64,000 nt of DNA, taken from NCBI RefSeq assembly GCF_002854065.1, contig NZ_CP024147.1. The stretch is one strand, 5' to 3'. The notes below the pieces were generated by a model, which saw only the letters and a program-made list of their open reading frames with translations, was not told the DNA's origin and searched no databases. The position numbers and the translations under genes are program-made. How positions within the stretch are numbered: the stretch's first letter is position 1; each line of letters opens with the position of its first letter. This document shows positions 43,908-47,568 of the stretch, in pieces. This DNA comes from Escherichia coli (GTDB lineage: Bacteria > Pseudomonadota > Gammaproteobacteria > Enterobacterales > Enterobacteriaceae).

Positions 43908-44183
43908 GTGGCTTCTGTTTCTATCAGCTGTCCCTCCTGTTCAGCTACTGACGGGGTGGTGCGTAACGGCAAAAGCACTGCCGGACATCAGCGCTATCTC
44001 TGCTCTCACTGCCGTAAAACATGGCAACTGCAGTTCACTTACACCGCTTCTCAACCCGGTACGCACCAGAAAATCATTGATATGGCCATGAATGGCGTTG
44101 GATGCCGGGCAACCGCCCGCATTATGGGCGTTGGCCTCAACACGATTTTCCGCCATTTAAAAAACTCAGGCCGCAGTCGGTAA
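43908..44183 (+). CDS. insA: IS1 InsA
   Basis: 91-aa [33 protein letters not shown]. Confidence 0.9.
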
Positions 44184-44605
44184 CCTCGCGCATACAGCCG
44201 GGCAGTGACGTCATCGTCTGCGCGGAAATGGACGAACAGTGGGGATACGTCGGGGCTAAATCGCGCCAGCGCTGGCTGTTTTACGCGTATGACAGTCTCC
44301 GGAAGACGGTTGTTGCGCACGTATTCGGTGAACGCACTATGGCGACGCTGGGGCGTCTTATGAGCCTGCTGTCACCCTTTGACGTGGTGATATGGATGAC
44401 GGATGGCTGGCCGCTGTATGAATCCCGCCTGAAGGGAAAGCTGCACGTAATCAGCAAGCGATATACGCAGCGAATTGAGCGGCATAACCTGAATCTGAGG
44501 CAGCACCTGGCACGGCTGGGACGGAAGTCGCTGTCGTTCTCAAAATCGGTGGAGCTGCATGACAAAGTCATCGGGCATTATCTGAACATAAAACACTATC
44601 AATAA
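44102..44605 (+). CDS. insB: IS1 InsB (expressed as InsAB' by -1 frameshift)
   Basis: 167-aa ORF in -1 frame relative to insA; A6C slippery motif at 44159-44165. Confidence 0.85.
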
Positions 44606-45181
44606 GTTGGAGTCATTACCGCTTATTCAACCATAATAAACAGTATGTATATCATAGGTTATTAATTGTGAGTTTTTTCGGTGTGTTATTTGTTTGTTTG
44701 ATGTTATGCTTTTGCGCCCCAAAAGGTTGTTTAGATGTATTTTATCAATTGATTTTCAATATCGTTTAATAAAGAAAAATTAAGCAAGCTGGATGTTGGT
44801 TTTTTGTTAATTGAATGGTTCTAATAATGTTTTTTTACTGTTGTTGAATGTGACTTGATAAGAAATGCAAGTAAAAATGATACTCTTTTTATTTTAAATT
44901 CAAACGGTTGACATATATATAGCAAGAGGTTTCAGGTGCGTTGTAGTGAGTTTATGTTAATAAAAAGTATAGTAAGCGTTGAAAAATGTAACTTTGAAAT
45001 ACGTTAGAATAAAAAACAATATACATATAATAATTTAATCTTAAATGAAATTTATTAAAATTTGCAAACTATAATTTTGTGTATAAAAATATAAATGCAC
45101 ATCATCCTGATTATGATTGTGTATTTAATTGGTTGTTATTTGACTGCTATCAACTTGTTTTAATTTTATGATAGGTGCAAG

Positions 45182-45931
45182 ATGGATTATGTTTGCTCCG
45201 TAGTTTTCATCTGTCAATCATTTGATTTAATTATAAACAGAAGAGTTATCTCGTTCAAAAAAAATTCATTGTTTATTGTAAGCGACAAAATTAGAAGGGA
45301 GTTACCAGTATGCCCCTCTAAACTAAGAATTGTTGATATAGATAAGAAAACATGTTTATCCTTTTTTATCGACGTGAATAATGAGCTGCCTGGCAAATTT
45401 ACTCTTGATAAGAATGGCTATATTGCTGAAGAGGAACCTCCATTATCGCTTGTTTTTTCTCTGTTTGAAGGGATTAAAATAGCAGACTCACACTCCCTTT
45501 GGTTAAAAGAAAGACTATGTATATCCTTACTTGCCATGTTCAAAAAACGCGAAAGTGTAAATTCATTTATACTAACAAATATAAATACATTTACCTGTAA
45601 AATTACTGGAATAATCAGTTTTAATATTGAGCGGCAATGGCATTTAAAAGATATTGCGGAATTGATTTATACGAGTGAAAGTTTAATAAAAAAAAGATTA
45701 AGGGATGAAGGAACGTCATTTACTGAAATATTGAGAGATACTAGGATGAGGTATGCAAAAAAACTCATAACTTCAAACTCTTATTCTATCAATGTCGTAG
45801 CCCAGAAATGTGGCTATAACAGTACTTCATATTTCATATGTGCATTTAAAGATTATTATGGTGTCACGCCATCTCATTATTTTGAGAAAATAATCGGCGT
45901 CACAGATGGAATAAACAAAACAATTGACTGA
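45182..45931 (+). CDS. appY: AraC-family transcriptional activator
   Basis: 249-aa ORF recognised as AppY; AT-rich flanks. Confidence 0.9.
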
Positions 45932-47202
45932 TAATGTTTATTACAAGTTGTCTACATGTTAATTATAATATTATACAGCGTTTTTTTTGATGTGATATTC
46001 TGGAACCATTAATTTGTAATTGGGTTGCTGTCGCCTATTTTATACATACTATAATTGATGGTTTTTTATGTGATTTAGTTAATAACCTTCTGGGTTTATT
46101 TTAAGGGTTAATTGTTACATTGAAATGGCTAGTTATTCCCCGGGGCGATTTTCACCTCGGGGAAATTTTAGTTGGCGTTCTTAAAATGTGTACTTAAGAC
46201 CAGCAGTAGTGATGAAGTTATAGTTTTCTATACCTGCTCCATTTTTGCTGTAGTCTGAAGTGTTATTATTGTGATCATAAAGTGAAGTATTACCTTTTTT
46301 ATTCGTAACCCGATTCCATGCGCCTTCAACATAAACTTTTGCGTTAGGTGTGACGTAATAACCTGCATTGACTGCAACAGAATAGTAATTTTGGTCTTTG
46401 ACCTTACTGCGATAAGTGATTCTTTTTCCCGGGTCATAGTGTTCATCGTTATCAGATGATTCCACCCAGCCGCTGTATTTAAATGTGCCACCGAGTTCAA
46501 AATCTTCATAACGATAACTTCCAGTCAAGCCAATGTAGGGCATTTTAAAACGTTGTTTGTAGCCGATTGCTCTTTCTCCATTCGGGAAGGAGCCGATATC
46601 ATCTCTGAATCCCTCCTCAGAACTGTAGATATAGGAACCACCTCTGGCTGTAAAGCTATAACGGCTTTCCTGATATCCGGCCATGAGTCCCAGGCGGTAA
46701 TTGGGTTCGTTGAGGAGCCAGCCTTTGATATTCAGATCAAATTCGTTGGCATAATTGAGTTGTGTATCAGGGTGTCTACTTTCATCCGTCCAGGTTCCGG
46801 GGTTACTGGAATCCATCCACTCCTGATCGACCATATTGCCACCTCGGCTGCCGAGAGTTGTCCAGCCAGCAGCCCCGATAGATATCTGGGGCATCAAATC
46901 CCAATTAATTGCACCTTTAATAATTGCAGCGTTATTGAATTTCCAGTCGAGTTGACTGACTTTTCGGCCTCCTTCTTCGGCTAGATAAACACGCTCTTTT
47001 GTTTTTCCGCTCAGAGTTCCAAGACTAATGTCCGCATTTATGTTGTCAGGAGTAAACGATAAAGTCTCGGTAGAAGCAAAAGAGCTGATCGCAATAGGGG
47101 TTGTCAGGACTTAGACTGGCCCCCTGAATCTCCAGACAACCAATATCACTTAAATAAGTGATAGTCTTAATACTAGTTTTTAGACTAGTCATTGGAGAAC
47201 AG

Positions 47203-47568
47203 ATGATTGATGTCTTAGGGCCGGAGAAACGCAGACGGCGTACCACACAGGAAAAGATCGCAATTGTTCAGCAGAGCTTTGAACCGGGGATGACGGTCTC
47301 CCTCGTTGCCCGGCAACATGGTGTAGCAGCCAGCCAGTTATTTCTCTGGCGTAAGCAATACCAGGAAGGAAGTCTTACTGCTGTCGCCGCCGGAGAACAG
47401 GTTGTTCCTGCCTCTGAACTTGCTGCCGCCATGAAGCAGATTAAAGAACTCCAGCGCCTGCTCGGCAAGAAAACGATGGAAAATGAACTCCTCAAAGAAG
47501 CCGTTGAATATGGACGGGCAAAAAAGTGGATAGCGCACGCGCCCTTATTGCCCGGGGATGGGGAGTAA
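47203..47568 (+). CDS. insC: IS2 OrfA (InsC)
   Basis: 121 aa from [26 protein letters not shown]; HTH. Confidence 0.85.

Follow-up and report, generated by a model that had tools for sequence, protein, structure and literature searches.

The window, that is, the whole stretch of 64,000 nucleotides of Escherichia coli DNA that was analyzed, carries two complete insertion sequences, an IS1 and an IS2, the second one located inside the ompT gene (Table 1). The IS1 shares with its family a length of 768 bp, inverted repeats of 23 bp, a 9-bp target duplication and an insA/insB' overlap with an AAAAAAC run (A6C) at element positions 307-313. The product of insA matches Pfam Zn_ribbon_InsA and HTH_Tnp_IS1. 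The fused protein InsAB' matches PF03811, PF12759 and PF03400, with DDE_Tnp_IS1 aligned over its full length (1-131/131, 1e-77), and reaches 240.8 bits with NCBIfam transpos_IS1 (cutoff 100). Its catalytic triad is presumably D109/D166/E191, as deduced from the 24-residue D-to-E spacing that Ohta et al. 2002 reportedly described for the IS1 transposase. IS1 copies that match it over its whole length with 100% identity occur at many unrelated sites in E. coli.

Table 1. Coordinates in the window of the two insertion sequences, their signals and the interrupted ompT gene
Feature	Position	Strand	Remarks
IS1 target-site duplication, left	43844-43852	.	Exact 9-bp direct repeat GCTTATTCA
IS1 element	43853-44620	+	768 bp, complete; ends from inverted repeats and 9-bp duplication
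IS1 IRL	43853-43875	+	23 nt, same as IS1A, IS1B, IS1C, IS1R
insA	43908-44183	+	91 aa, 0 frame; repressor with zinc ribbon and HTH
insAB' fused transposase	43908-44605	+	698 nt, 232 aa after -1 shift
IS1 slippery heptamer A_AAA_AAC	44159-44165	+	Element positions 307-313, insA register
IS1 IRR	44598-44620	-	23 nt, same as reference copies
IS1 target-site duplication, right	44621-44629	.	Exact 9-bp direct repeat GCTTATTCA
ompT 3' part	46181-47111	-	Cut off by IS2
IS2 target-site duplication, left	47107-47111	.	GGACT
IS2 element	47112-48442	+	1331 bp, complete
IS2 IRL	47112-47153	+	Begins 5'-TA
insC (orfA)	47203-47568	+	121 aa, 0 frame
IS2 slippery heptamer A_AAA_AAG	47520-47526	+	insC register
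insD (orfB)	47526-48431	+	-1 frame, 301 aa from GTG
Predicted IS2 frameshift-stimulating hairpin	47533-47604	+	72 nt, 6-nt spacer UGGAUA after heptamer
IS2 IRR	48402-48442	-	Ends CA-3'
IS2 target-site duplication, right	48443-48447	.	GGACT
ompT first 28 nt (codons 1 to ~10)	48443-48470	-	Split from remainder by IS2

The second element shares with IS2 (IS3 family, IS2 group) the length of 1331 bp, the TA/CA ends, the 5-bp duplication and an AAAAAAG run (A6G) in a -1 overlap. Its termini read 5'-TAGACTGG... to ...AAATCCA-3', consistent with the TA terminus at IRL and the IRR ending CA-3' published for IS2 (PMC3219604). The inverted repeats, of about 41 bp, are imperfect, and their detected arms span 47121-47153 and 48402-48434. 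InsC scores 238.8 bits with the NCBIfam IS2 repressor TnpA (cutoff 229) and InsD 723.9 bits with the IS2 transposase TnpB (cutoff 597), while the 409-aa fusion OrfAB matches Pfam HTH_Tnp_1, HTH_21, rve and rve_3 and, with 279.5 bits (cutoff 160), NCBIfam transpos_IS3. OrfAB contains D240, D306 and E342 together with 15 more of the published wild-type residues in the same numbering (PMC3219604). Across unrelated strains, copies 100% identical to the whole IS2 interrupt many different genes, and the element departs from MG1655 IS2A at position 606 only (C versus A, a synonymous change), the InsC, InsD and OrfAB proteins being identical.

Insertion sites and recency of the insertions

Both insertions are simple, as the 80-mers of the reconstructed empty sites match exactly at E. 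coli loci that carry no interruption: the IS1 site with a single copy of GCTTATTCA in four other E. coli genomes (L001-L004) and the IS2 site with a single GGACT in three genomes (L001, L002, L004). The original prediction that both elements have intact ends and target duplications is borne out by these empty sites, together with the 23-bp repeats and the 9-bp direct repeat of IS1 and the inverted repeats and GGACT repeats of IS2. The IS2 sits in codons 8-10 of ompT, and joining of 46181-47111 to 48448-48470 restores an intact OmpT of 317 aa. With ompT inactivated by IS2, the strain should be devoid of the OmpT outer-membrane protease, like laboratory B strains, a loss that bears on the inference of virulence traits and on protein-expression behaviour.

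None of 5,426 complete E. coli genomes carries both the IS1 and the IS2 insertion, and the site of IS2 in ompT was not found among them; the matches at 76-85% coverage have their IS copies at other positions. Both insertions are also absent from strain 100416, whose sequence is 99.92-99.96% identical over about 43 kb. The absence of the pair from the 5,426 genomes and of both insertions from such a close relative indicates that they are recent.

Slippery heptamers and downstream RNA structure

A motif scan of the window located the AAAAAAC and AAAAAAG heptamers of the two elements on the + strand. The whole window has 29 occurrences of A6C, where chance would give 19, and 25 of A6G, where it would give 17. 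The heptamers by themselves carry little weight, and their position is decisive. Both fit X_XXY_YYZ in the upstream frame (TTA AAA AAC in IS1, GCA AAA AAG in IS2). A -1 shift yields the insA-insB' fusion only within 44081-44183 (103 nt) and the insC-insD fusion only within 47508-47568 (61 nt); each heptamer lies inside its segment, A_AAA_AAG being the sole in-register heptamer of the IS2 overlap. The runs that had been predicted at the insA/insB' and insC/insD overlaps were thus recovered at exactly the same coordinates, in register, and each one is a canonical -1 frameshift site. No Shine-Dalgarno-like stimulator (GGAG, GAGG, AGGA or similar) was found within 30 nt 5' of either heptamer; such an element is optional and not needed to class a site as a programmed -1 frameshift signal. 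Rfam gave no frameshift-element family at gathering thresholds in the whole window or at E<=1 in 43800-48500.

Downstream of the IS2 heptamer, the predicted hairpin has a folding energy of -36.8 kcal/mol (0.51 kcal/mol per nt) and is the stablest 72-nt segment in the 197 nt that follow, the downstream region as a whole having a folding z of -2.3. For comparison, 271 members of the IS3 family average 0.45 +/- 0.12 kcal/mol per nt (PMC4066793). The rules of Sharma et al. 2014 (PMC4066793) ask for a structure that starts 4-10 nt past the motif, has a G-C pair backed by three or more further pairs, measures 17-140 nt and reaches a stability of 7.6 kcal/mol or more, and the hairpin conforms to all of them. 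Its outer stem of 9 bp, formed by the 5' arm GCGCACGCG (47533-47541) and the 3' arm (47596-47604), persists in relatives as distant as 69% identity and shows one compensatory change (C-G to U-A); it was the only part retained in the RNAalifold consensus. Three pairs showed double changes, a number matched by 62 of 500 shuffles in an alignment of six sequences from a region coding in two frames; the covariation appears supportive of the hairpin, if weakly so. 

The arrangement resembles the signals of IS911 and IS3, in which A_AAA_AAG is likewise followed by a downstream structure, here a stem-loop at 6 nt. It differs from that of IS911, whose frameshifting uses an upstream Shine-Dalgarno-like element, in that none lies 5' of the IS2 heptamer. 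In the relatives of 69% identity the outer stem encloses a branched interior, recalling the three-way junction of IS911 (PMC5009743).

No convincing stimulatory structure was found downstream of the IS1 heptamer. The 102-nt fold has a z of -0.86, about that of shuffled sequence, and the best candidates reach about 0.36 kcal/mol per nt in minimum-free-energy folding, which cannot see pseudoknots. This result fits the frameshift rate of IS1, known to be low. Pseudoknots downstream of the IS1 site have been suggested (PMC12428005).

Fused transposases and transposition competence

It is very probable that the window holds two complete, canonical and recent insertion sequences, each one making its transposase by a programmed -1 ribosomal frameshift. 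An IS1 of the widespread type (IS1R/'IS1B-family') and an IS2 of the IS3 family would have inserted recently in the DLP12 prophage remnant of the E. coli chromosome. Normal translation of the upstream ORF would yield a small DNA-binding regulator, InsA in IS1 and InsC/OrfA in IS2, and in a minor share of translation events the ribosome would slip -1 on A_AAA_AAC or A_AAA_AAG, respectively, pass the upstream stop codon and read on in the -1 frame. The resulting products would be InsAB', of 232 aa with a zinc ribbon, an HTH and a DDE domain, and OrfAB, of 409 aa with an HTH, a leucine-zipper-like motif and a DDE domain. The 72-nt hairpin at 6 nt past the heptamer probably raises slippage in IS2, and the ratio of regulator to transposase would keep transposition rare. 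Published results for elements that are identical or nearly so lead one to expect frameshifting and transposition of the window copies: the IS1 transposase needs the A6C frameshift (PMC12428005), and the behaviour of A6G and A7G in IS2 is documented (PMC3219604). The elements, their frameshift signals and their biology are already known, and there is nothing new in them. In annotation, each element calls for a single joined CDS for the transposase, with a programmed -1 frameshift, and not for broken genes or pseudogenes.

As judged by sequence comparison, competence for transposition is very likely for IS2 and likely for IS1. The original prediction had deduced it for both from their intact ends and target duplications; the conclusion holds, but the reasoning is too weak. 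Intact ends and A6C are necessary, yet insufficient for IS1 autonomy and no proof of it, because K-12 IS1B/C keep both, like the window IS1, and are nearly immobile. Competence is better argued from the 100% identity to copies at many sites, from the 99.9% identical relative that is free of the insertions and from the absence of the L217Q substitution. Inactivating substitutions in the catalytic residues, on which the same prediction would have fallen, were searched for and none was found: OrfAB is identical to that of MG1655 IS2A, and residues 87-232 of InsAB', a stretch of 146 that takes in the complete DDE_Tnp_IS1 domain, do not differ from those of K-12 IS1A, a copy that is experimentally mobile (PMC12428005). 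Both copies are probably still mobile, and further insertions, deletions and rearrangements in the region are possible.

On balance unlikely, for the IS1, is that the copy is intact and non-autonomous, with a poorly active F81 InsAB', a transposase from another IS1 copy, acting in trans, that brought it to the site, and an A6C run kept by recency instead of function. F81 is present in the window IS1, and K-12 IS1B/C/D, which carry L81F, A6C and intact ends, transpose at about 1 per 10^10 cells, L81F being the change suspected by the authors (PMC12428005). Copies of this inert type are mobilised when InsAB' is provided in trans by other copies (PMC12903888). Since such mobilisation is possible, recent insertion is no proof of an active enzyme made by the window IS1. 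However, F81 occurs likewise in R100 IS1R, reportedly the copy on which Ohtsubo's classical work on transposition and frameshifting was done, and in the commonest plasmid isoform of IS1. Moreover, L217Q, the only InsAB' residue unique to IS1B/C in the reference comparison and adjoining E216, is absent from the window IS1, and the exact 768-bp sequence interrupts many different genes in unrelated strains. These points argue for an autonomous copy. In general, scans of this kind have to judge IS1 autonomy isoform by isoform, against copies whose transposition was measured by experiment.

A different origin of the fusion transposases, by slippage of the RNA polymerase on the A6 run with one A added in the mRNA, is very improbable. 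An added A would give the same fusion frame, as occurs in engineered A7G IS2 (PMC3219604), and homopolymer runs are a substrate of transcriptional slippage in some insertion sequences (reviewed in PMC5009743; Baranov 2005). However, both motifs lie exactly in the X_XXY_YYZ register for tRNA re-pairing, and the hairpin downstream in IS2 stands at the right distance for a stimulator of ribosomal type. Productive transcriptional slippage in bacterial insertion sequences generally needs about nine or more A/T residues, and A6 is too short for it. The literature assigns both IS1 and IS2 to ribosomal -1 frameshifting (PMC3219604, PMC12428005, PMC4066793, PMC5009743). That the heptamers are functionless chance strings in decaying relics has practically no probability: in a window as AT-rich as this one A6C and A6G are frequent, but both elements are full length, with ORFs, ends and duplications intact, and identical or nearly so to reference copies, and a chance origin is ruled out by the register of the motifs, their canonical element positions and the short overlaps that contain them.

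The IS1 isoform of the window

The window IS1 differs by seven nucleotides from K-12 IS1A, by two from IS1B/C, by two from R100 IS1R and by one from the common plasmid isoform (e.g. pABWA45_1, PGAP 'IS1B family'), this isoform and R100 IS1R being its closest ones. In InsAB' the only residue changed with respect to K-12 IS1A is L81F, so that the protein shares F81 with IS1R/B/C and S130 and L217 with IS1A. The transposition of the IS1 of pOXA-48 has been tracked in a preprint; within the first 50 kb of the pOXA-48 record NC_019154.1, IS1 is absent.

The slippery run of the window copy is extended 5' as U_UUA_AAA_AAC, the same as in IS1R, and differs there from the C_UUA_AAA_AAC of IS1A. It is quite improbable, if conceivable, that the window IS1 represents a natural 'separation-of-function' isoform, combining L81F and the U_UUA_AAA_AAC run in the absence of the L217Q or R130 of IS1B/C. 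The substitution behind the immobility of IS1B/C/D has been left open (PMC12428005, PMC12903888). Such an isoform, if its transposition rate differed clearly from that of K-12 IS1A, would reveal which substitution immobilises the K-12 IS1B/C/D copies, and it would tell whether the three substitutions located just 5' of A6C tune the efficiency of frameshifting.

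Slippery heptamers and reading frames

Both heptamers are located on the + strand exactly where the original prediction had placed them (see table). As bare strings they are little informative, and it is their context that decides; the window contains 29 A6C (19 expected) and 25 A6G (17 expected). The codon reading of insA and insC sets both heptamers in the X_XXY_YYZ register required for tandem tRNA re-pairing. The stretch in which a -1 shift yields a fusion protein is limited to 103 nt in IS1 (44081-44183) and 61 nt in IS2 (47508-47568), and A_AAA_AAG is the sole in-register heptamer of the IS2 overlap. 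The slippery run of the window IS1 is longer, U_UUA_AAA_AAC, as it is in plasmid R100 IS1R and K-12 IS1B and IS1C, whereas C_UUA_AAA_AAC is found in K-12 IS1A. Of the seven nucleotides that differ from IS1A, three (element positions 298, 301 and 304) are grouped directly upstream of A6C. The conceptual fusions, InsAB' of 232 aa and OrfAB of 409 aa, span 698 and 1229 nt of genomic sequence, equal to the joined 'programmed frameshift' CDSs annotated by PGAP in other genomes.

Features of both elements and of the surrounding DNA
Feature	Position	Size, frame or strand	Detail
IS1	43853-44620	768 bp	23-bp inverted repeats
IS1 target duplication		9 bp	direct repeat GCTTATTCA, exact, both flanks
insA	43908-44183	frame 0	...CAT TTA AAA AAC TCA...TAA; insB' in -1 frame
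IS1 slippery run	44156-44165		U_UUA_AAA_AAC
IS1 heptamer	44159-44165	+ strand	AAAAAAC
IS2	47112-48442	1331 bp	5' end 5'-TAGACTGG, 3' end AAATCCA-3'
IS2 target duplication		5 bp	GGACT, exact, both flanks
insC	47203-47568	frame 0	...GCA AAA AAG TGG...TAA
IS2 heptamer	47520-47526	+ strand	AAAAAAG
insD	47526-48431	-1 frame relative to insC	
IS2 predicted hairpin	47533-47604	72 nt	6-nt spacer UGGAUA after heptamer
ompT	46181-47111 + 48443-48470	- strand	split by IS2
IS1 to appY start codon	44621-45181	561 bp	
argU, tRNA-Arg(TCT)	32365-32441		
Repeat of argU 3' end	48895-48939	45 nt	exact
Direct repeat, first copy	42654-42796	143 nt	88% identity between copies
Direct repeat, second copy	43703-43845	143 nt	
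Rfam IS009 RNA match	42578-42776		229.5 bits
Rfam ES036 match	10813-10855		
Rfam STnc480 match	10881-10947		

Insertion history and transposition competence

Empty sites were rebuilt in silico by deleting each element and one repeat copy, and each was matched exactly, over 80 nt, by E. coli loci that carry no interruption. Hence, IS1 and IS2 both arrived by simple transposition, and the duplications at their target sites are genuine. The pair was found in none of 5,426 complete E. coli genomes, and strain 100416 (NZ_CM128593.1), the closest relative found, collinear with window 13038-57945 at 99.92-99.96% identity, lacks both insertions and has an intact ompT. Therefore, both insertions are recent and lineage-specific. 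Both sequences have 100% identical copies at many unrelated sites, which break a variety of genes in strains and plasmids that are not related to one another.

The original prediction held both elements to be transposition-competent from their ends, duplications and motifs. Alignment revealed no inactivating catalytic substitution in either transposase, which favours that proposal, but for IS1 those features are insufficient, as K-12 IS1B and IS1C illustrate. K-12 IS1B, C, D and F keep A6C and yet account for <0.1% of transposition by IS1, a rate near 1 event per 10^10 cells (PMC12428005), and the ends of IS1B and IS1C are identical to those of IS1A. Moreover, transposase acting in trans is able to mobilise such nearly immobile copies (PMC12903888), so that a recent insertion is no proof of autonomy. 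It is thus a concern that the window IS1, with its intact ends and A6C, might not be autonomous, and it carries F81, the L81F change suspected by the authors to immobilize IS1B/C/D/F (PMC12428005). However, R100 IS1R and the dominant plasmid isoform have F81 too, L217Q, specific to IS1B/C, is missing, S130 is that of mobile IS1A, and identical copies have spread to many sites. The window IS1 differs by 7 nt from IS1A, 2 from IS1B/C, 2 from IS1R and 1 from the common plasmid isoform. Only InsAB' positions 81, 130 and 217 vary among the compared copies, being F/S/L in the window, L/S/L in IS1A, F/R/L in IS1R and the common plasmid type, and F/R/Q in IS1B/C; residues 87-232, the entire catalytic part, are those of IS1A. 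The window IS1 is probably competent for autonomous transposition.

For IS2 autonomous competence is very likely. It differs from MG1655 IS2A by one nucleotide (element position 606), and since the change is synonymous InsC, InsD and OrfAB are identical. OrfAB has, in the same numbering, all 18 wild-type residues of the IS2 transposase mutagenesis study (PMC3219604), including catalytic D240, D306 and E342, as well as W237 and A341. Its matches comprise HTH_Tnp_1, HTH_21, rve and rve_3, and NCBIfam transpos_IS3 (279.5, cutoff 160), IS2 TnpB (723.9, cutoff 597) and IS2 TnpA (238.8, cutoff 229). InsAB' matches Zn_ribbon_InsA, HTH_Tnp_IS1, the full DDE_Tnp_IS1 model (1e-77) and NCBIfam transpos_IS1 (240.8 bits, cutoff 100).

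Frameshifting and its putative stimulators

In IS1 the InsA repressor is the default product, InsAB' arises only upon -1 ribosome slippage at A6C, and transposition rises >1000-fold when the frame is forced (PMC12428005). In IS2 the default is OrfA, slippage at A6G gives OrfAB, and OrfAB becomes predominant when the motif is mutated to A7G (PMC3219604). By analogy, this picture would carry over directly to the window copies: IS1 would produce InsA by default and InsAB' upon a -1 slip at A6C, and IS2 would produce OrfA and, upon a slip at A6G, OrfAB.

The hairpin predicted downstream of the IS2 heptamer has nine consecutive pairs at its base (GCGCACGCG/CGCGUGCGC) and is the most stable 72-nt window within 197 nt downstream (-36.8 kcal/mol; mean -23.3 kcal/mol); the 106-nt region gives z = -2.3 against shuffles. 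It conforms in every respect to the empirical rules set by Sharma et al. 2014 for stimulators in the IS3 family; its 0.51 kcal/mol per nt lies above their mean of 0.45 +/- 0.12 (PMC4066793). Relatives at 96%, 81% and 69% identity keep the spacer and the outer stem (97% of cells paired), with one compensatory C-G to U-A change and one G-U wobble, around an interior that pairs otherwise. This comparison, of six sequences in a region coding in two frames, supports the predicted hairpin, short of proof. Two plasmid-borne ~69% relatives (L016 468-564 and L017 468-564) lack A6G and contain only CGA_AAA_U (A_AAA tetramer), with an identical UGGAUA spacer and the 9-bp outer stem around a branched interior.

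In MFE folding, no structure stands out downstream of the IS1 A6C (z = -0.86), which fits the low IS1 frameshift rate. No SD-like element was found within 30 nt upstream of either heptamer, and an Rfam search gave no family matching either frameshift site. Transcriptional slippage on A6 would generate the same fusions, but it is most improbable, as A6 is short for it and the register and spaced hairpin indicate the ribosome. Heptamers that are chance strings or relic leftovers are excluded.

Genomic setting and ompT

All features of both elements agree with well-characterised families; the finding is correct and already known, and its value beyond known biology resides in annotation, the ompT knockout and the minor IS1 isoform question. 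IS2 splits ompT in codons 8-10, within the signal peptide, and the rejoined pieces encode an intact 317-aa OmpT, so an OmpT-null phenotype, due to the recent IS2 insertion, is predicted for the strain; such an insertion was seen in none of 5,426 complete E. coli genomes.

The window belongs to the chromosome of E. coli, with the allantoin/pur region, sfm fimbrial operon, argU and the DLP12 prophage remnant, followed by appY, ompT, envY, nfrAB and cusS. The DLP12-like remnant is bounded by argU and the 45-nt repeat of its 3' end, and both insertions lie between them, close to the right end. IS1 and appY have the same orientation, with IS1 on the upstream side, and the intergenic DNA here is very rich in A and T. 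The 143-nt direct repeat consists of tail-fibre-assembly gene fragments; its first copy overlaps the IS009 match and its second stops just short of the IS1 insertion point. The ES036 and STnc480 sRNA matches, at gathering level, are unconnected with the IS elements. Strain 100416, a Gambian human stool isolate, has an IS1 in place of the equivalent of window 3260-13037 (gcl to allD region), an IS1-associated deletion that belongs to that strain and not to the window.
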